From Vectrevirus LI10P3, in the sequence record OZ035807.1: 44,534 nt of DNA; one strand, 5' to 3'. The notes below the pieces were generated by a model, which was given only the letters and a program-made list of their open reading frames with translations, ran no database searches and was not told the DNA's origin. Of the stretch, positions 3,407 to 43,414 are shown piece after piece. A program made the translations under genes and the position numbers. Position 1 is the stretch's first letter. Every line of letters starts with the position of its first letter.

Positions 3407-3751
3407 ATGCTTAACAAATACTTCAAGCGCCGTGAGTTCGCTTGCCGATGTGGGTGCGGTACATCCACTGTTGATGCTGAGTTATTACAGGTAGTCACAG
3501 ATGTGCGTGAGCACTTTGGTGTTCCTGTGGTTATTACTTCTGGTCATCGCTGTGCTAAGCACAATGCTAATGTAGGAGGAGCTAAGAACTCCATGCATCT
3601 TACTGGTAAGGCTGCTGACATTAAGGCACGAGGCATCTTACCATCTGAAGTGCATAAGTATCTTACTGATAAGTACCAAGGCAAATATGGGATTGGTAAG
3701 TACAACTCCTTCACCCACATTGATGTACGGGATGGGTGTGCACGATGGTAG
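3407..3751 (+). CDS. endolysin, zinc peptidase M15 family
   Basis: 114 aa; motif SGHRCAKHNANVGGAKNSMHLTGKAADI ... FTHIDVR is the His/Asp/His zinc-ligand pattern of small M15 peptidases. Confidence 0.75.
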   Translation: MLNKYFKRREFACRCGCGTSTVDAELLQVVTDVREHFGVPVVITSGHRCAKHNANVGGAKNSMHLTGKAADIKARGILPSEVHKYLTDKYQGKYGIGKYNSFTHIDVRDGCARW

Positions 3752-3859
3752 GTTGTGTTGCATGGTGTGAACGCATGGTTGCTAAGGCTTCAGAGGAAGG
3801 CAACTATGAAGATTGGCAGAACTACTCAACTTTATTAGCTCAATGGAAAGGGAGATGCA

Positions 3860-4009
3860 ATGAAAAAGCTGTTCAAATCTAAGAAGGTTGTAGGTGCACT
3901 AGTTGCATTGGCAATTGCTCTTGTTTCTGTAGGTCTTGGTGTAGACCTTGGCTCTGGCACGGAATCCTCTGTGACAGACGTGGTCTGCCAAGTGATCACC
4001 TGTGAATAA
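3860..4009 (+). CDS. small secreted/membrane protein (lysis cassette)
   Basis: 49-aa ORF MKKLFKSKKVVGALVALAIALVSVG... with signal-peptide-like N-terminus; GGGAGA RBS; below ORF-track size cutoff. Confidence 0.4.
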   Translation: MKKLFKSKKVVGALVALAIALVSVGLGVDLGSGTESSVTDVVCQVITCE

Positions 4010-4223
4010 GTTTCTAGAAGTGCTGGCAGGTCTTATTGGCCTGCTTGTCTCTGCTAAGAAGAAACAAGAAGAGAAGGAGGCACAAAGTGAAGCGAATCAT
4101 GTTAGTGACAATCCTGCTGATTGGTTCGCTGACCACTTCCGGGTGTCAGCAGGCGTTACCAGAGAAAGCAATGGTGAAACCCCTGAGGCCGACGCTGACG
4201 GAAGTTTACGAGGTAGACGATAA
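4002..4223 (+). CDS. possible i-spanin-like membrane protein
   Basis: 73 aa, N-terminal hydrophobic segment then charged region; GTG start without clear RBS; contains the lipoprotein ORF in +1 frame. Confidence 0.3.
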   Translation: MNKFLEVLAGLIGLLVSAKKKQEEKEAQSEANHVSDNPADWFADHFRVSAGVTRESNGETPEADADGSLRGRR

Positions 4224-4296
4224 GGTCTGCTTTAGTAAGCCTGACGCTACAAAATTAGGTTTGTATATTCTTTCGCTAGAACGCGGATATAATTAA
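4099..4296 (+). CDS. putative o-spanin (outer-membrane lipoprotein)
   Basis: 65 aa from internal ATG; hydrophobic signal followed by LTTSGC lipobox-like motif and Pro-rich segment; embedded in / overlapping the 4002 ORF, the usual spanin arrangement. Confidence 0.45.
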   Translation: MLVTILLIGSLTTSGCQQALPEKAMVKPLRPTLTEVYEVDDKVCFSKPDATKLGLYILSLERGYN

Positions 4297-34056: not shown

Positions 34057-36458
34057 TGGAAGTACAAGGTTCATTAGGTAGACAAATCCAAGGGATTAGC
34101 CAGCAGCCGCCAGCGGTACGCTTGGATGGTCAGTGCACAGCTATGGTTAATATGATACCTGATGTAGTGAATGGTACTCAATCACGCATGGGTACAACTC
34201 ATATTGCAAAGATACTTGATGCTGGGACTGATGACATGGCTATTCATCATTATCGCAGAGGTGATGGTGATGAAGAGTATTTCTTCACGTTGAAGAAAGG
34301 ACAAGTTCCTGAGATATTTGATAAGTATGGGCGCAAATGTAATGTGACTTCACAAGATGCACCTATGACCTACCTCTCTGAGGTTGTTAATCCAAGGGAA
34401 GATGTACAATTCATGACGATAGCTGATGTTACTTTCATGCTTAATCGTAGGAAAGTAGTTAAAGCTAGTAACAGGAAGTCACCTAAAGTTGGAAACAAAG
34501 CCATTGTGTTTTGTGCGTATGGTCAATATGGTACATCTTATTCCATTGTAATTAATGGGACCAACGCTGCTAGTTTTAAAACACCGGATGGTGGAAGTGC
34601 AGACCATGTTGAACAAATTCGAACTGAACGTATCACTTCTGAATTGTACTCTAAGTTGCAGCAATGGAGCGGTGTGAGTGACTATGAAATACAAAGAGAC
34701 GGTACTAGTATATTTATCGAGAGACGGGATGGTGCTAGCTTTACAATAACAACCACCGATGGTGCAAAAGGTAAGGACTTAGTGGCTATCAAGAATAAAG
34801 TTAGCTCTACTGACCTACTCCCTTCTCGTGCGCCTGCTGGTTATAAAGTACAAGTGTGGCCTACTGGCAGCAAACCTGAGTCTCGTTACTGGCTGCAAGC
34901 TGAGCCTAAAGAGGGAAACCTTGTATCTTGGAAAGAAACAATAGCTGCCGATGTATTACTTGGGTTTGATAAAGGCACAATGCCTTATATCATTGAACGT
35001 ACAGGTATCGTAGACGGCATAGCTCAATTCAAGATAAGACAAGGCGATTGGGAAGATCGTAAAGTAGGAGATGACCTGACTAACCCTATGCCTTCTTTTA
35101 TTGATGAAGAAGTACCTCAGACAATAGGTGGGATGTTCATGGTGCAGAACCGCCTATGCTTTACAGCAGGTGAAGCTGTTATTGCTTCTCGTACATCATA
35201 CTTCTTCGATTTCTTTCGTTATACGGTTATCTCTGCATTGGCGACTGACCCATTTGATATTTTCTCAGATGCTAGTGAAGTCTACCAGCTAAAACATGCA
35301 GTGACCTTAGATGGCGCTACCGTGTTGTTCTCTGATAAGTCACAATTCATACTGCCAGGAGATAAGCCTTTAGAGAAGTCAAATGCATTGCTTAAGCCTG
35401 TTACAACATTTGAAGTGAACAATAAAGTGAAGCCAGTAGTAACTGGTGAATCGGTAATGTTTGCCACTAATGATGGTTCTTACTCTGGTGTACGAGAGTT
35501 CTATACAGACTCTTATAGTGACACTAAGAAGGCACAAGCAATCACAAGTCATGTGAATAAACTCATCGAAGGTAACATTACCAACATGGCAGCAAGCACC
35601 AATGTCAACAGGTTACTTGTCACTACCGATAAGTATCGTAACATAATCTACTGCTACGATTGGTTATGGCAAGGAACAGACCGTGTACAATCAGCATGGC
35701 ATGTGTGGAAGTGGCCTATAGGTACAAAGGTGCGAGGTATGTTTTATTCTGGCGAATTACTTTATCTGCTCCTTGAGAGAGGCAATGGTGTCTATCTGGA
35801 GAAGATGGATATGGGTGATGCATTAACCTATGGTTTAAATGATCGCATCCGAATGGATAGACAGGCAGAGTTAATCTTCCAGCATTTCAAAGCAGAAGAT
35901 GAATGGGTATCTGAACCACTCCCTTGGGTTCCTACTAACCCAGAACTTTTAGATTGCATCTTAATCGAGGGTTGGGATTCATATATTGGTGGTTCTTTCC
36001 TATTCAAATACAACCCCGGTGATAACACCTTGTCTACAACCTTTGATATGCATGATGATAGCCACGTAAAAGCGAAGGTTATTGTTGGTCAGATTTACCC
36101 TCAAGAGTTTGAACCAACACCTGTAGTTATCAGAGATAGGCAAGACCGTGTATCCTATATTGATGTACCTGTTGTGGGATTAGTTCACCTTAATCTTGAT
36201 ATGTATCCTGATTTCTCCGTGGAGGTTAAGAATGTGAAGAGTGGTAAAGTACGCAGGGTGCTAGCGTCAAACCGTATAGGTGGTGCTCTCAACAATACAG
36301 TAGGTTATGTTGAACCAAGAGAAGGTGTCTTCAGATTCCCACTGAGAGCTAAGAGTACGGATGCTGTTTATCGTATTATTGTAGAATCACCTCACACATT
36401 CCAGCTTCGTGATATTGAGTGGGAAGGGAGCTACAATCCAACCAAAAGGAGGGTCTAA
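34056..36458 (+). CDS. tail tubular protein B (T7 gp12-like)
   Basis: 800 aa; N-terminal GISQQP motif shared with T7 gp12 as I recall it; start overlaps upstream stop (TAATG). Confidence 0.8.
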   Translation: MEVQGSLGRQIQGISQQPPAVRLDGQCTAMVNMIPDVVNGTQSRMGTTHIAKILDAGTDDMAIHHYRRGDGDEEYFFTLKKGQVPEIFDKYGRKCNVTSQDAPMTYLSEVVNPREDVQFMTIADVTFMLNRRKVVKASNRKSPKVGNKAIVFCAYGQYGTSYSIVINGTNAASFKTPDGGSADHVEQIRTERITSELYSKLQQWSGVSDYEIQRDGTSIFIERRDGASFTITTTDGAKGKDLVAIKNKVSSTDLLPSRAPAGYKVQVWPTGSKPESRYWLQAEPKEGNLVSWKETIAADVLLGFDKGTMPYIIERTGIVDGIAQFKIRQGDWEDRKVGDDLTNPMPSFIDEEVPQTIGGMFMVQNRLCFTAGEAVIASRTSYFFDFFRYTVISALATDPFDIFSDASEVYQLKHAVTLDGATVLFSDKSQFILPGDKPLEKSNALLKPVTTFEVNNKVKPVVTGESVMFATNDGSYSGVREFYTDSYSDTKKAQAITSHVNKLIEGNITNMAASTNVNRLLVTTDKYRNIIYCYDWLWQGTDRVQSAWHVWKWPIGTKVRGMFYSGELLYLLLERGNGVYLEKMDMGDALTYGLNDRIRMDRQAELIFQHFKAEDEWVSEPLPWVPTNPELLDCILIEGWDSYIGGSFLFKYNPGDNTLSTTFDMHDDSHVKAKVIVGQIYPQEFEPTPVVIRDRQDRVSYIDVPVVGLVHLNLDMYPDFSVEVKNVKSGKVRRVLASNRIGGALNNTVGYVEPREGVFRFPLRAKSTDAVYRIIVESPHTFQLRDIEWEGSYNPTKRRV

Positions 36459-37204
36459 TGGCTATAGGTTCAGCCGTTATGGCTGGTATGTCTTCTATTG
36501 GTAGTATGTTTGCAGGTAGCGGTGCAGCAGCCGCTGTTGGTGGTACTGCCGCAGCAGCAGGAGGGACAGCCGCCGCAGGTGGCGGAGGTTTGCTTGGCTC
36601 CCTTGGTAGTTTCTTAGGAGGTTCTTCTGCTGGCTTCTCTAATGCAGGACTGCTTAGTGCAGGTATGCAAGGTCTTGGTCTTCTAGGCAATCTTTTTGGT
36701 GGAAGTGATGAAGCCAAAGCTATGAAGAAAGCTCAGGAGGAGCAATGGCGGCAGCAGTTAATTGCTACACAAGAAGCATATAAGACAGTAACAGATGCAG
36801 AACGCTCTGCTGCTAAACAGTATCATGCAGATGCAATCAGTAATCAGGCTTCACTGCTACAGCAAAGAGCACAGGTTGCATTACTTGCTGGTGCTACTGG
36901 TACTGGTGGTAACTCTGTGTCTTCTATGCTGAATGACTTAGCAGCAGAAGGCGGAAGGAACCAGAGTACAATTATCGATAACTATGAGAATCAGAAGATT
37001 AACTTCACCAACCAGCTTAAGTCCATCCAACGGGGTGGTCAGATGCAGATGCGTGAGTTTAAGAAACCTTCTGCCGTGAGCACCTTGGTGCAAGGTATAC
37101 CGAGTCTGGCATCTGCCTATGTAACAGGTAGTAAGTCCGGCATGGCTTTAGGTAAAGCTTTAACTGATTCTCGTACATATTCATCTGGAACAAGAGGTAT
37201 TTAA
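36458..37204 (+). CDS. internal virion protein (small, Gly/Ala-rich)
   Basis: 248 aa from ATG 36458 with AGGAGGG RBS; Gly/Ala-rich N-terminal half; first of three ejection-protein genes. Confidence 0.6.
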   Translation: MAIGSAVMAGMSSIGSMFAGSGAAAAVGGTAAAAGGTAAAGGGGLLGSLGSFLGGSSAGFSNAGLLSAGMQGLGLLGNLFGGSDEAKAMKKAQEEQWRQQLIATQEAYKTVTDAERSAAKQYHADAISNQASLLQQRAQVALLAGATGTGGNSVSSMLNDLAAEGGRNQSTIIDNYENQKINFTNQLKSIQRGGQMQMREFKKPSAVSTLVQGIPSLASAYVTGSKSGMALGKALTDSRTYSSGTRGI

Positions 37205-40152
37205 TGGCAATTGAGCGACAAGCAGTACAAGGTCTGCCACAAGTGCAGGCCACTTCTCCTAATGTCATGACCTTTGCACCTCAGCGAGTTGGAGGTGTGG
37301 AGGCTGGCGTAGCTTCTACCTCCGGTAGTCGATTTATCGAAGACCTTATTCGAGCAGCCAGTAGTGTAGCTGATGTAACCACTGGTATCCTTAATCAAAA
37401 GATTGAGGAAGATAAGGTTGTTCAAATGGAGCGGGCATATAACGGATTAATGCCTTCTGAGGATGCAACTCGTGGTGGCGCTCGTGCTAACATGCTTGTC
37501 AAAGCTCAACTGCTAGCTAATGATGAAGCAGCACGAATGAAAGACATGGCTACTCGTTTCCAAGGAACGGATGACGAGTGGACACAACTTATGGTTAATT
37601 CTCGTAATGAGATGCAGAATAAGCTGTTCCAGCAATACCCTGAGTTGCAAGGTGACAAAGATACTATGCGTATGGTCACTAATGTCTTCCAAGAACAGCA
37701 GCCTCAGATTTGGGCGACACGAACCCAGCATAAACTTGACCGTGAACAAGCAGACCGTGAGGATACCTTTGACGGGCGAGTGGCTTCTACTTGGGATTCT
37801 AATATTGACCCTGAAGCATCTGGCTATGCTTTACAGGAACGAATCCGCGAAGGTCTTACTCAAGGATTACTACCTGAACAGATGCACAAGAAGTTAGTCC
37901 AGCGAGCAATTTCACTTGCACAAGGCGGTGATGTTAGCATGGCTGAAGCCCTGAAGTATGTGAAGGACGATAAGGGTGTTTCTGTTTATGCTAAGAATCC
38001 ACAGCTTATCACAGCCATCACTAGTGGTAATGCAGTTTGGGCTAGGAATAATGTAGCTGATGTAACTCGTATGTCTTTCGAAGTTAAAGAATCCTACCTT
38101 GCAGGGGATTTAACTGATGAAGAATTGTTGGAACGAGCACAGCACATTAATAATCTGACAGGTAACTCTGTCTTCTCTAATCCAGAGCTAGAGGTACTGA
38201 TGCGCCAACGGGCTAAGCAGAATGCAGAGCTAGGTGCAATGCAGGATATGCGACGTGAGCTTTACTCCGACCGCCTGACTGGCTTCCAAGGTAAGACTGA
38301 TAAAGAGAAGAAGGCTTACATTGATGTTATCAAACAGGATAGCCAACTTTATGCAGACCAGCAAATCAAACAACGTGGCTTGGACCCTTATAGTCAAGAG
38401 GCTGAAGCTATTCGTGGTGCAGTGGAAGTGCAGCGCCTACAATTCATGAACTCCAAAGGCTTAGTGGATGATACCTTTGAGTCTCGTATCAAAGCCATGG
38501 AATCTATGCTATCTCCTGAGCACTTTGCCAAGGGCGAACCACAAGAGTTGATGACTATTCGCCAGTTGTGGGAACAGTTGCCAGAAGAGGGCCGAGGTGT
38601 CTTTGGTGACACGGTGAATGGCTACATGGATAACTACAACACTGCACTACAAATGGGAGAGACACCTTTGCAGTCTGCAAGGTTTGCGCGTGAAGCACAG
38701 CAGAAATTCTCTCGTACTGAGAAGGAAACCAAGAAGTTCAACTCAGCTATTGGAGATGCACTGGATGAGGTATCTGGTGCTGGCTGGTTCGATGGTAAAA
38801 CCGAAGTGTCAGACTTAGGTAAAGCTATTGCAGAAGAGGAGTTACGAGCTAAGGCTAATATGCTGTGGTCTAGTGGTATGCGTAACATGGATTCCATCAA
38901 GAAGGCTTTAATTACTTGGGGCAATAAACGCTACACTCAAACAGAGGATGCAAAGACTTCCGGTGGCTATTTCATTAAAGGTGATTACACTTCTGCATCT
39001 GATATGCTTATGTCAGTTGGGAAAGGCGTAAATCCTACCGATGTACCTCTGGCGCTTGGTAGGTATGTAGAAACACAGATGCCAGAATTGAAGAAGGAGC
39101 TTCAAGAGTGGGAAACTAAAGATGATATATACATTGATTACAATGAACAGAAAGGTACTTTCGTGATTCGTGCTGGTGCAGCAGGTCGCCCTCTTTCTGG
39201 AGTAATCCCTGTAACCTCTTTAGATACCACTTCACTACTAGATTCTGCCTATCAGAAGAAAGTAGAGGAACGAGATAAAGGCGAGTATGTTCACCCTTAT
39301 CGTACAGATATTGGTGCACAAGAGCCTATGCCAGCTAAACCAACTGCCAAAGATATTGGTAAATTTGGACTAGCTAACTTCCTCATGTCTTCTGCTTTTG
39401 CTTCTGGTGAGAATCTGCCTTCTAACTTCGAGATTAACTATCGAGGTAATATGCAACAATTCTATGACAAGCTAGCTATGGATGAGAATAAAGATAAAGT
39501 TGGCTTTAATAAGGCAACTGGAACCTTTACTCCATATAAAGATGCTCACGGTGAGTCTATCGGTTACGGTCATTTCTTAACGGAAGAAGAGAAGCGAAAC
39601 GGGTATATTAAGATTGGTGATGAACTAGTTCCCTATCGAGGGTCTATGTCTCAGCTTACAGAGAGCAAGGCTCGCGCTCTTATGGAGCAAGATGCCAAGA
39701 AGCATGTGCCTCCTACTCGTGACTGGAAGATTCCGTTTGACCAGATGCATCCTGCACAGCAACGTGGCTTGATGGATTTAACCTACAATTTAGGTAAAGG
39801 TGGAATCCAGAACTCACCGCGTGCTCTTGCTGCATTCAAAGCTGGTAAGCTTACGGAAGGCTTTATCGAAATGCTGGGCACTGCATCAAGTGAAGGTAAG
39901 CGTATCCCTGGTCTACTGAAGCGACGCGCTGAGGCATACAATATGGCATCTGCTGGTGGTGTGCCTAAGATTACCGAAGTGGAGACTCGTGAAGATGGCT
40001 CCATGTGGGTTAGGTTTGGTGGACCTATGCCAACAGGTTCTGTCTCGGCATGGACTCATAAACGTATTGGCGCGGATGGTTGGTATCAGGTTTATGAGGC
40101 TGCACCTACCAAGTTAGCTAAAGGTTCTAAGGTAGGTAAATTTAAGTTGTAG
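37204..40152 (+). CDS. internal virion protein with C-terminal lysozyme-like domain
   Basis: 982 aa; C-terminal TPYKDAHGESIGYGHFLT resembles the T4-lysozyme YKDTEGYYTIGIGH block; GLLKRRAEAYNM further downstream. Confidence 0.65.
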   Translation: MAIERQAVQGLPQVQATSPNVMTFAPQRVGGVEAGVASTSGSRFIEDLIRAASSVADVTTGILNQKIEEDKVVQMERAYNGLMPSEDATRGGARANMLVKAQLLANDEAARMKDMATRFQGTDDEWTQLMVNSRNEMQNKLFQQYPELQGDKDTMRMVTNVFQEQQPQIWATRTQHKLDREQADREDTFDGRVASTWDSNIDPEASGYALQERIREGLTQGLLPEQMHKKLVQRAISLAQGGDVSMAEALKYVKDDKGVSVYAKNPQLITAITSGNAVWARNNVADVTRMSFEVKESYLAGDLTDEELLERAQHINNLTGNSVFSNPELEVLMRQRAKQNAELGAMQDMRRELYSDRLTGFQGKTDKEKKAYIDVIKQDSQLYADQQIKQRGLDPYSQEAEAIRGAVEVQRLQFMNSKGLVDDTFESRIKAMESMLSPEHFAKGEPQELMTIRQLWEQLPEEGRGVFGDTVNGYMDNYNTALQMGETPLQSARFAREAQQKFSRTEKETKKFNSAIGDALDEVSGAGWFDGKTEVSDLGKAIAEEELRAKANMLWSSGMRNMDSIKKALITWGNKRYTQTEDAKTSGGYFIKGDYTSASDMLMSVGKGVNPTDVPLALGRYVETQMPELKKELQEWETKDDIYIDYNEQKGTFVIRAGAAGRPLSGVIPVTSLDTTSLLDSAYQKKVEERDKGEYVHPYRTDIGAQEPMPAKPTAKDIGKFGLANFLMSSAFASGENLPSNFEINYRGNMQQFYDKLAMDENKDKVGFNKATGTFTPYKDAHGESIGYGHFLTEEEKRNGYIKIGDELVPYRGSMSQLTESKARALMEQDAKKHVPPTRDWKIPFDQMHPAQQRGLMDLTYNLGKGGIQNSPRALAAFKAGKLTEGFIEMLGTASSEGKRIPGLLKRRAEAYNMASAGGVPKITEVETREDGSMWVRFGGPMPTGSVSAWTHKRIGADGWYQVYEAAPTKLAKGSKVGKFKL

Positions 40153-40216
40153 TATCTAACTCAAGGCTTGTCTCACATGTGAGACAGGTCTTTATGATAG
40201 GCACTATGGAGGAATT

Positions 40217-43200
40217 ATGGAACAAGACATTAAGACTAATTGGGCTGGATATGTCCAGTCTACTCCTGAGCCGTTTTCTATTGAGGCGGCTCCGGTATCG
40301 GCTCCTACGATACGCCAGCGTAATGAGTTACAAGAGCAAGTTCTTGAAGCTAAAGCTGATGCTGATATCTTAGGTGCTGTAGGTGCTGCCTTCCAGAATG
40401 AGTGGTTGGCATTCGGAGGCAAGCGGTGGTATGACCGTGCCACTGCTGATTTCACACCTCAACCAGACTTCGAGATACAACCTGAGCAACGTGAAGCACT
40501 ACGTTTCAAATATGGTACAGATATGATGCAGACAATCACTGAGGGTGTTCGTTCTGAGGATGAATTGAACTTCCGTATTCAGAATGCTGATGAAGACCTT
40601 GAGCGCAATAAGCGCATTGCTCAGGCTGGCTGGGTTGGCTCTGTGGCGACGATTGGCGCTGCTGTGCTTGACCCAGTGGGTTGGGTTGCCTCTATCCCAA
40701 CTGGCGGTGCAGCCAAAGTCGGCCTCGTAGGTCGTGCCGTGCGTGGCGCTATCGCCGCTGGCGTGAGCAATGCCGCTATTGAATCCGTATTGGTCCAAGG
40801 TGACATGACTCGTGATTTAGATGACATTATGGTAGCACTAGGTTCCGGTATGGCTATGGGTGGCGTTATTGGCGCTGTAGCGCGTGGTAGGGCCACTAAG
40901 CTCAGTGAGCAAGGGGATGACAGGGCTGCGAGCATTGTGCGCAGTGCAGACGCAGGGGACCGCTATGTGCGTGCTGTTGCTGATGACAGTATCGGTGCGA
41001 TGCGTGTTAAGGGCGAAGAGGTACTCACTGAGGGCGCATTTGATATATCTAGTAAAGGCGAAGACTTGCTGAAAACATTGCAGAGGGAGGGGAACTCTAT
41101 TGATATGACCCCTCGCCGCTGGGCCGGAACCATGTCTGCCCTTGGGACTGTCGTGCACTCCTCTCATGATGCTAGTGTTCGTGGCCTCGGTGCTCGCCTG
41201 TTTGAGTCTCCGCAAGGTTTAGGTATGCAAAAGGCATCTGCCAGTCTTATGCAGAATACCAACTTGAATCGACTGAAGTCTGCTGATATGAACCGTTTCA
41301 ATGACGGGTTTGACTTATGGCTCAAAGAAAATAATATCAATCCAGTTGCAGGCCATACTAACTCTCACTATGTGCAGCAATATAATGAGAAGGTATGGGA
41401 AGCTGTACGCATCGGTATGGATGAGTCTACGCCTAAGTCTATCCGTATGGCAGCAGAGGGGCAGCAAGCTATGTACCGAGAAGCCTTAGCTTTAAGGAAG
41501 CGCTCCGGTGAAGCTGGCTTTGAAAACATTAAAGCAGATAGTAAGTATATGCCTGATATCTTTGACACTATGAAAGCTCGCCGTCAATTTGATAGGATAG
41601 GAAAGGATATAGATAAAGAAGATATCATTGAGTTATTCTCTCGTGCTTATCAGAACGGCGCTCGTAAAATTCCAAAAGAAGTAGCGGATGAAATTGCACG
41701 AGCACAAGTAAACCGTGTTGTGGATGCCACTCTGACAGGACGTATGAGTTTCGAAAAGGCTATGTCTGGTCAGACTAAAGCCGAGTATGAAGCAATAATG
41801 CGCAAGGCAGGCTTCAGTGATGAAGAAATTGAAAAGATGGTAGAAGCTCTGGATAACAAAGAAACCAGAGATAACATCTCTAACCGAGCTAAAATGAGTT
41901 TAGGACTAGATGTTACTCAAGAATACAATGGTATTCGTATGCGTGACTTCATGAATACCAACGTGGAAGAGCTAACAGATAACTATATGAAGGAGGCAGC
42001 AGGTGGCGCTGCATTGGCCCGTCAAGGATTCTCTACCTATCAGGCTGCACTTAATGCAATTGACCTTGTAGAGCGAAATGCACGAAACGCGGCTAAGGAT
42101 AGCAAGGCTAGCTTAGCACTAGATGAAGAGATTCGTCAAATGCGAGAAGGGCTTCGCTTGATTATGGGTAAATCTATCGATGTAGACCCACAGGCTTTGT
42201 CTACTAAAATGCTGCGACGTGGTCGTGACATTACAGGTGTACTTCGCTTAGGTCAGATGGGCTTCGCACAGCTAGGCGAACTTGCTAACTTCATGGGTGA
42301 GTTTGGTATTGCTGCAACCACTATAGCTTTAGGTAAGCAATTCCGCTTTACATCTAAGGCTTTGCGGAGCGGTGATGGCTTCTTTCGAGATAAGAACTTG
42401 GCAGAAGTAGAGAGAATGGTAGGTTACATTGGTGAGGATAACTGGCTAACAACCAAGGGTGCACGTCCAGATGAGTTTGGTGATGTAACCACAGTAAAAG
42501 GAATGATGGCTCACTTTGACCAATCCATGAACTCAATACGTCGTGCTCAGACCAACCTATCACTTTTCCGCATGGCACAGGGTTCTCTGGAGCGAATGAC
42601 CAATAGGCAAATAGCTTTGTCTTTCATTGACCACCTTGAAGGCAAGAAGATTATTCCTCAGAAGAAACTGGAGGAACTTGGTCTTACTCAGGAGTTCGTG
42701 ACTAATCTACAGAAGCACTATGATGCTAACTCTAAAGGTTCTGGCTTGCTTGGCTTTGATACAATGCCTTATGCCATGGGTGAAACTTTAGCTAATGCTA
42801 TTCGTCGTAAGTCAGGTCTAATTATCCAACGTAACTTCATTGGTGATGAAGGTATCTGGATGAACAAAGCACTAGGTAAGACATTTGCACAGCTTAAGTC
42901 ATTCTCTCTTGTATCTGGTGAGAAGCAATTTGGTCGAGGGATTCGCCACGATAAAATTGGTCTTGCTAAGAAGACAGCTTACGGGTTTGCTTTGGGTTCA
43001 ATAGTGTATGCGGCAAAAGCCTATGTGAACTCTATTGGGCGAGAAGACCAAGATGAATATTTGGAAGAGAAGTTATCTCCTAAAGGGTTGGCCTTTGGTG
43101 CAATGGGTATGATGAGTACAACTGCTGTATTTAGTCTAGGTGGAGATTTCTTAGGTGGCCTAGGTGTTCTACCTTCTGAGTTAGTACAATCCCGTTATGA

Positions 43201-43414
43201 GGCTGGCTTTCAGACTAAGGGTTTGATAGACCAAATACCACTAGTAGGTGTTGGTCAAGATGCATATCGTTTAGCAGATTCTATAACTAAATATGCAGAG
43301 GGTGATACAGAAGGTGTAGATGTGGCACGTAGGGCTTTACGCTTAGTGCCTCTAACTAATGTAATAGGAATCCAGAACGCATTGCGTTATGGCTTAGATG
43401 AACTGGAGGATTGA
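40217..43414 (+). CDS. internal virion protein (large, T7 gp16-like)
   Basis: 1065 aa; last of the three ejection-protein genes before the tail-fibre adaptor. Confidence 0.7.
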   Translation: MEQDIKTNWAGYVQSTPEPFSIEAAPVSAPTIRQRNELQEQVLEAKADADILGAVGAAFQNEWLAFGGKRWYDRATADFTPQPDFEIQPEQREALRFKYGTDMMQTITEGVRSEDELNFRIQNADEDLERNKRIAQAGWVGSVATIGAAVLDPVGWVASIPTGGAAKVGLVGRAVRGAIAAGVSNAAIESVLVQGDMTRDLDDIMVALGSGMAMGGVIGAVARGRATKLSEQGDDRAASIVRSADAGDRYVRAVADDSIGAMRVKGEEVLTEGAFDISSKGEDLLKTLQREGNSIDMTPRRWAGTMSALGTVVHSSHDASVRGLGARLFESPQGLGMQKASASLMQNTNLNRLKSADMNRFNDGFDLWLKENNINPVAGHTNSHYVQQYNEKVWEAVRIGMDESTPKSIRMAAEGQQAMYREALALRKRSGEAGFENIKADSKYMPDIFDTMKARRQFDRIGKDIDKEDIIELFSRAYQNGARKIPKEVADEIARAQVNRVVDATLTGRMSFEKAMSGQTKAEYEAIMRKAGFSDEEIEKMVEALDNKETRDNISNRAKMSLGLDVTQEYNGIRMRDFMNTNVEELTDNYMKEAAGGAALARQGFSTYQAALNAIDLVERNARNAAKDSKASLALDEEIRQMREGLRLIMGKSIDVDPQALSTKMLRRGRDITGVLRLGQMGFAQLGELANFMGEFGIAATTIALGKQFRFTSKALRSGDGFFRDKNLAEVERMVGYIGEDNWLTTKGARPDEFGDVTTVKGMMAHFDQSMNSIRRAQTNLSLFRMAQGSLERMTNRQIALSFIDHLEGKKIIPQKKLEELGLTQEFVTNLQKHYDANSKGSGLLGFDTMPYAMGETLANAIRRKSGLIIQRNFIGDEGIWMNKALGKTFAQLKSFSLVSGEKQFGRGIRHDKIGLAKKTAYGFALGSIVYAAKAYVNSIGREDQDEYLEEKLSPKGLAFGAMGMMSTTAVFSLGGDFLGGLGVLPSELVQSRYEAGFQTKGLIDQIPLVGVGQDAYRLADSITKYAEGDTEGVDVARRALRLVPLTNVIGIQNALRYGLDELED

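Follow-up and report, generated by a model that had tools for sequence, protein, structure and literature searches.

A C-terminal T4-lysozyme-type domain with a hairpin-shifted active-site motif in the gp15-position protein of Vectrevirus LI10P3

The 44,534-nucleotide sequence of Vectrevirus LI10P3 (record OZ035807.1), which was the whole stretch of DNA analysed and which we call the window, is a complete coliphage genome of the K1E/K1-5 type (genus Vectrevirus, Molineuxvirinae), and we focused on the protein encoded at positions 37204–40152, whose C-terminus resembles T4 lysozyme. This region shows 99.3% nucleotide identity with Escherichia phage EC120 and matches 64 phage records, with nucleotide identities of 80–99%. 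It consists of a single open reading frame (ORF) on the plus strand (37204..40152), with an ATG at 37204 and a stop codon ending at 40152, for a product of 982 amino acids and a predicted mass of 109.5 kDa. We assign this product as the ejection protein at the gp15 position, orthologous to K1E gp35, K1-5 gp38 and SP6 gp36, as deduced from the ORF, from a full-length match to PHROG 4290 (E=0) and from its identity with K1E gp35, from which it departs by substitutions at 10 of 982 positions. PHROG 4290 is described as “lysozyme domain-containing protein”, which is also the annotation of the orthologues in RefSeq. Likewise, the last 249 amino acids are 98% identical to those of K1-5 YP_654136.1, with residues 734–859, active site included, being the same in both proteins, and the SP6 orthologue shows 42% identity over the full length. 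A Pfam search with the N-terminal 730 amino acids gave no match, and an NCBIfam search returned nothing meaningful. The lysozyme domain is basic, with an isoelectric point (pI) of 9.3, within an otherwise acidic protein (pI 5.6 for the whole product).

The C-terminal part of the protein comprises a GH24 (T4-lysozyme-type) muramidase domain, spanning approximately residues 745–914 (39436..39945, plus strand), and, 3' of it, a beta module of ca. 60 amino acids (39967..40149, plus strand). Within the domain, the block TPYKDAHGESIGYGHFLT (residues 776–793; 39529..39582, plus strand) corresponds, from its phmmer alignment to T4 lysozyme (T4L), to a beta1-turn-beta2-beta3 arrangement containing D780 (39541–39543), E784 and S785 (39556–39558). 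A first-pass annotation of this DNA had noticed the resemblance of the block to T4L and had named structure prediction and alignment to GH24 lysozymes among the ways to check it; both bear the resemblance out. Pfam PF00959 (Phage_lysozyme) matches residues 776–910 with E=2.2e-10 and 41.4 bits, with a cut-off of 22.3 bits, and phmmer comparisons with PDB sequences retrieve T4L variants only, the best with E=5.5e-4 and with residues 777–890 aligned to T4L 17–133. In this pairing, Y778-K779-D780 fall on T4L Y18-K19-D20 and S785 on T26, with a one-residue deletion. When a profile of 54 relatives was compared with the PDB, it matched GH24 crystal structures with E values down to 5e-27, and an AlphaFold2 model of residues 735–982 based on this 54-relative alignment reached a pLDDT of 96.1 and a pTM of 0.90. 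Foldseek searches with the model retrieved GH24 proteins only (T4L, R21, RrrD, a fungal GH24 muramidase and PHAb10), and the model has the two-lobed alpha/beta fold of T4L. The hallmark residues of GH24 are also kept, G789 and R907 being invariant and N862 and G864 at least 90% conserved, and a string nearly the same as TPYKDAHGESIGYGHFLT is shared by classical GH24 relatives, among them P0020 (AYKDAHGYSIGYGHF), and by phiKMV gp36 (YKDADGYSVGLGHYL). The block is, then, part of a true T4-lysozyme-type domain and not a chance match.

It had also been noted that an alanine stands where the catalytic glutamate would be expected, nine residues before the Asp of the block. This is correct, the residue being A771 (codon 39514–39516, nine before D780), and the canonical Glu-X8-Asp is absent; no Glu is visible by eye at the canonical spacing because the Pfam match begins at profile position 9, past the Glu. 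A first search for homologues with the C-terminal 282 amino acids yielded three matches, too few for evaluating conservation, and was substituted by an HMMER search with residues 720–982, exhaustive over cluster representatives, which retrieved 302 relatives; 133 of these were aligned with T4L using MAFFT. In the resulting alignment, E761 (39484..39486, plus strand) occupies the same column as T4L E11, a column containing E in 129 of the 133 relatives, D in two and a gap in the remaining two. The sequence around the Glu is FYDKLAMDEN in the present protein and IFEMLRIDEG in T4L. Furthermore, conservation of this Glu is at least 90% in alignment A1 and complete among ten full-length homologues (A3), and a hidden Markov model (HMM) of the family aligned T4L residues 5–134 in one stretch, with E11 on the E761 column. 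In the model, DSSP places E761 next to last in a predicted helix of residues 746–762, and the end of this helix, E761-N762, parallels that of helix A of T4L, E11-G12; E761 thus closes the first helix on its C-terminal side, the position of the catalytic Glu in GH24 enzymes. Judging from these alignments, the catalytic Glu is present as E761, 19 residues ahead of D780 instead of nine, and we propose that it is spatially equivalent to T4L E11.

The motif of the protein is E761-X18-D780-X4-S785, which departs from the canonical E-X8-D-X5-T; a Glu-X8-Asp/Cys-X5-Thr motif is reported for every published structure of endolysins of that family (PMC8228626). The difference in spacing is due to a hairpin of 9–10 residues inserted after E761-N762. 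As assigned by DSSP on the model, N762 acts as a cap and is followed by the inserted beta-hairpin, with short strands F768-N769 and T774-F775 (39487..39531, plus strand), then by the canonical hairpin (Y778-D780/G783-I786) and by strand H790-F791. A second extra hairpin, in comparison with free-standing GH24 endolysins, occurs at residues 801–810. The odd spacing is therefore a variant of the motif, whose residues are not lost. This variant is not restricted to the present protein, because the distance from the Glu to the Thr/Ser that precedes IGYGH has a bimodal distribution in the relatives, with 13–19 or 23–30 intervening residues (23 here and 14 in T4L), and the GH24 relatives examined (P0005–P0152) fall into two classes, classical E-G and “E-N + ~10-residue hairpin”. 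The signature of the long class, E-N-x4-G-[FYW]-[DN]-x3-G-x-W-x-P-[HY]-x-[SD]…[DE]-[TS]-[IL]-[GA]-Y-G-H, occurs in 67 of 129 representatives, and proteins of at least 850 amino acids with the domain at the C-terminus account for 23 of these 67 vs one of the 62 classical E-G members. Long-class members of mid length retain the match to PHROG 4290, and two short E-N members were on contigs of only 1.4–1.9 kb, which set the extent of their genomic context. Two peptide queries against PDB sequences did not identify any solved chain with the E-N insert. The turn adjoining D780 is variable: residue 782 (39547–39549) is His in the present phage and in K1-5 and Arg in K1E, and the equivalent position is Glu in most insert-class relatives.

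We consider it very probable that the 37204–40152 product is a K1E-type ejection protein of the gp15 position, participating in entry, whose last ca. 240 amino acids comprise an active GH24 muramidase, with E761 as acid catalyst and a hairpin-shifted motif, plus a small beta module. For the second carboxylate, D780 is clearly favoured as the most probable equivalent of T4L D20, and S785 would stand for T26. Besides the phmmer pairing of D780 with D20, this is consistent with the sequence PYKDAHGESIGYGHF, which is nearly residue-for-residue like the hairpins of the classical GH24 proteins P0020 and phiKMV gp36, and with the model, where the hairpin 778–780/783–786 adjoins the IGYGH strand as beta1-beta2 of T4L does. 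Several points weigh against this explanation as a whole. The proposed equivalence of E761 and E11 was drawn from alignments and helix position. The muramidase activity of the domain would be that of its K1-5 and SP6 orthologues, taken second-hand from reviews. Homology with T7 gp15 was not detected by hhalign with a 10-sequence family profile (probability 0.2%, E=0.35), so that the assignment of a “periplasmic tunnel” role is based on gene order and literature; PMC4819975 describes IVP-C as having diverged past recognition between groups. The family HMM, in turn, puts T4L Y18-K19-D20 on F768-N769-K770, in the first hairpin copy, and not on Y778-K779-D780, a disagreement with pairwise phmmer that makes the identity of the canonical Asp residue ambiguous. 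Lastly, 57 of 75 relatives with the insert have Ser at position 780, and a conserved S-x-E-G-G-x-D-T instead, making the K1E/SP6 proteins atypical within their own branch.

The last two points would also fit an enzyme of the same type with another second residue, in which the hairpin G767-T776 occupies the beta1-beta2 site of T4L, K770 lies at the Asp site, and catalysis depends on E761 together with D780 or E784, or on the Glu alone. Indeed, the first hairpin copy, GFNKATGTFT (IYKDTEGYYT in T4L), is in exact canonical register with the Glu, as E761-X8-K770-X5-T776, and a pattern E-[GN]-x4-[small]-[aromatic] is common to the classical and the insert-bearing groups in the same register; PDB GH24 chains also align “AYDDGVGVWT” with the family “GfddatgvWt”, with insignificant scores only. 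Nevertheless, the likeness of PYKDAHGESIGYGHF to classical hairpins, the phmmer pairing and the placement of the second hairpin in the model argue for D780, and we regard this alternative as rather unlikely, although the strongest of those considered.

The first-pass annotation had gone on to suggest a possibly altered catalytic chemistry, that is, that the general-acid Glu has been lost and that another mechanism or set of residues operates. A771 and the departure from Glu-X8-Asp/Cys-X5-Thr speak for it, but this suggestion does not hold well against an almost invariant E761 that shares the alignment column of T4L E11 and, like it, is found at the end of helix 1: the Glu is displaced, not lost, the column of A771 is variable in the relatives, and the spacing is accounted for by an insertion common to 67 of 129 relatives, so we consider a change of chemistry very improbable. 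Only marginally more credible would be a non-catalytic domain that anchors the ejectosome to peptidoglycan while something else degrades it. Nothing specific points to this, although a basic domain would fit binding as well, and against it stand the conservation of the catalytic Glu and of second-shell residues, the muralytic bands of 107–109 kDa reported for SP6 and K1-5 virions in PMC5380687, and the two neighbouring ejection proteins, in which no other muralytic domain was found with Pfam or PHROG. The least probable of all is that the domain serves for lysis at the end of the cycle and not for entry. PHROG families 4290 and 7 are labelled “lysis”, but the domain is joined to ca. 730 amino acids of virion protein encoded within a structural operon, and the orthologues are assigned to the virion in the literature (PMC8954989, PMC5380687). 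Moreover, a separate lysis cassette is present in the window (3407–4293), indicating that the GH24 domain is not the lysis enzyme. This cassette includes a separate endolysin of the peptidase M15 type (3407..3748, plus strand), identified by tblastn with the VEc3 “endolysin, peptidase M15” (85% identity, 114 amino acids), and homologues of a holin (3860–4006) and a spanin (4144–4293).

The gene is flanked by those of two other putative ejection proteins, in an order that is the same in VEc3, K1E, K1-5, SP6, phiKMV and T7. The upstream gene (36458..37204, plus strand) encodes a gp14-like internal virion protein of 248 amino acids, the putative outer-membrane pore, which matches PF24072 (T7_gp14) with E=6.8e-33 and PHROG 805 with E=4e-52. 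The ORF was listed as 36419–37204, with a GTG start and 261 amino acids; the ATG at 36458 is the likelier start and overlaps the TAA of the upstream tail-tube B gene, as in VEc3. The Gly/Ala-rich stretch at the N-terminus of this protein is eight residues longer than that of VEc3. Downstream, at 40217..43414 (plus strand), lies the gene for a gp16-like inner-membrane ejection protein (PHROG 342, E=1e-248) that does not have the N-terminal transglycosylase of T7: no SLT match was obtained with Pfam, and the PHROG 342 match begins only at profile position 162. The length of this protein is 1065 amino acids here, 1102 in K1E and VEc3, and 1061 in K1-5. The description of the 37204–40152 product as a middle internal virion protein in the first-pass annotation is thus right by position, between the PF24072 and the PHROG 342 genes. 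Its placement of the T7 wall-degrading domain at the N-terminus of gp16 is likewise accurate, the SLT domain being at residues 15–127 (Pfam, E=1.7e-31). The absence of SLT from the gp16-like protein implies that the wall-degrading module is carried here by the gp15-position protein and not by gp16.

The 64-nucleotide spacer between 40152 and 40217 contains a conserved stem-loop with a perfect 13-bp stem (40163..40192, plus strand; AAGGCUUGUCUCAC-AUGU-GAGACAGGUCUU), with a minimum free energy of -22 kcal/mol and a z-score of -3.48, which is identical in K1E, K1-5 and VEc3; SP6 has, in the same place, an inverted repeat that resembles it but carries several substitutions. A simple terminator scan did not call this hairpin, which may serve in RNA processing or in the control of transcription or translation between the ejection-protein genes. 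Separately, in the metagenomic contig SRR19039500_83849 (L009) the gp15-like protein is found in two adjacent ORFs, 2–763 and 767–1816; the upstream ORF corresponds to positions 442–673 of PHROG 4290, and the downstream one, of 349 amino acids, contains both the lysozyme and the C-terminal module. The layout is due to a genuine division of the gene or else to a frameshift error.

The presence of a lysozyme on this protein is already known. K1E gp35, K1-5 gp38 and SP6 gp36 are the same protein in the same gene order, with differences from the present one consisting, in K1E and K1-5, of point substitutions only, such as the Arg of K1E for H782; SP6 gp36 has the same E-N-insert-YKDAHG-x-S motif. 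According to PMC8954989, the lysozyme activity located on gp16 in T7 resides on the gp15-like proteins of K1E and K1-5 (gp35, 982 amino acids), and its Table 1 assigns K1E gp35 (982 amino acids) as a virion-core protein ejected to form the periplasmic tube. Likewise, K1-5 Gp38 (YP_654136.1, 109 kDa) and SP6 Gp36 (107 kDa) are among the virion-associated lysozymes tabulated in PMC5380687, with Moak and Molineux 2004 as the source cited. Phages of the phiKMV type show the same arrangement (PMC4819975; Ar-KM preprint, bioRxiv 10.64898/2026.05.18.726046): as here, where it occupies residues 745–914 of 982, a T4-lysozyme-type domain is found at the C-terminus of the middle ejection protein, as in phiKMV gp36 (gp36C) and in the periplasmic-tunnel protein gp42 of Ar-KM, and takes the place of a gp16 transglycosylase. 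A lysozyme at the “C-terminus of the PT” is reported for 31 of 127 Autographivirales with an identifiable lysozyme or transglycosylase domain in the ejectosome (bioRxiv 10.64898/2026.05.18.726046). However, phiKMV gp36 belongs to a different GH24 subgroup, with the canonical E-X8-D (EAYRGEAYKD) and without the insert, and it also lacks the K1E-type C-terminal beta module. It is not closely related to the present protein, with a blastp match of only 15 residues and 3 bits with the K1E-family HMM.

More distant likenesses are found with T4L and the endolysins of P22, R21, RrrD and LysF1, which are free-standing lysis enzymes of ca. 150–165 amino acids with E-X8-D/C-X5-T; unlike them, the present domain is fused to a virion protein and has an inserted hairpin. 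The N-terminal lytic transglycosylase of T7 gp16 does the same job, the local opening of the wall by an ejected internal core protein, but with another fold family (SLT, PF01464), transglycosylase chemistry, and another carrier protein and terminus. The first-pass annotation had spoken of a different solution to cell-wall penetration. The difference is real, in that the lysozyme is on another carrier than in T7, but it had already been published for K1E/K1-5 gp35, SP6 gp36 and phiKMV gp36 (PMC8954989, PMC5380687, PMC4819975, bioRxiv 10.64898/2026.05.18.726046).

From work on T7 and phiKMV-like phages (PMC8954989; bioRxiv 10.64898/2026.05.18.726046), we infer an ejection pathway in which the core proteins would be packaged in the capsid and expelled through the tail at infection. 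The gp14-like protein would form a pore in the outer membrane, and the gp15-like protein would span the periplasm, with its lysozyme domain level with the wall. There, the domain may cut the MurNAc–GlcNAc glycan locally, allowing the DNA conduit to cross the wall, after which the gp16-like protein would reach the inner membrane. The acid catalyst of this cleavage would be E761, with which the first helix closes, and the second carboxylate would be D780.

The two consecutive hairpins suggest an origin for the insert. The insert and the canonical hairpin (residues 767–785; 39502–39558) resemble each other as GFNKATGTFT and PYKDAHGES, which suggests an ancient tandem duplication; identity between the two copies at the DNA level is 12 of 30 bases, which argues neither for nor against it. 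The C-terminal residues 155–164 of T4L (TGTWDAYKNL) also resemble the insert consensus TGxWxPHKSL (TGTFTPYKDA here, residues 772–781), probably by chance; this likeness came up by way of an engineered construct with a T4L duplication (PDB 1jtm), with E of about 6. More tentatively, the K1E/SP6 lysozyme may represent a separate branch within GH24, marked by “E-N + hairpin insert” and by the consensus E-N-x4-G-[FYW]-[DN]-x3-G-x-W-x-P-H-x-S-x-E-G-G-x-D-T-[IL]-[GA]-Y-G-H, and strongly enriched, in the sample examined, at the C-termini of ejection proteins of ca. 900–1000 amino acids. Such a branch would break the E-X8-D-X5-T rule, have no solved structure and have mostly replaced the Asp by Ser, with a new acid in E-G-G; its origin by duplication and a role in tethering or refolding are possible.

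Lysozyme on the gp15-position ejection protein is thus a known feature and textbook mosaicism in T7-like phages, and the value of our results as a discovery is small, the protein being ca. 99% identical to K1E gp35. The only mildly new point is the insert-bearing branch of GH24, off the textbook motif spacing and without a solved structure. Our results do serve as a correction, because the E-X8-D-X5-T rule would wrongly lead annotation pipelines and readers to call the domain inactive, and the partner carboxylate in the insert-bearing branch might be of interest to those engineering virion-associated lysins. If the branch is real, the insert could suit an enzyme that is tethered to the ejectosome or that refolds after its passage through the tail.

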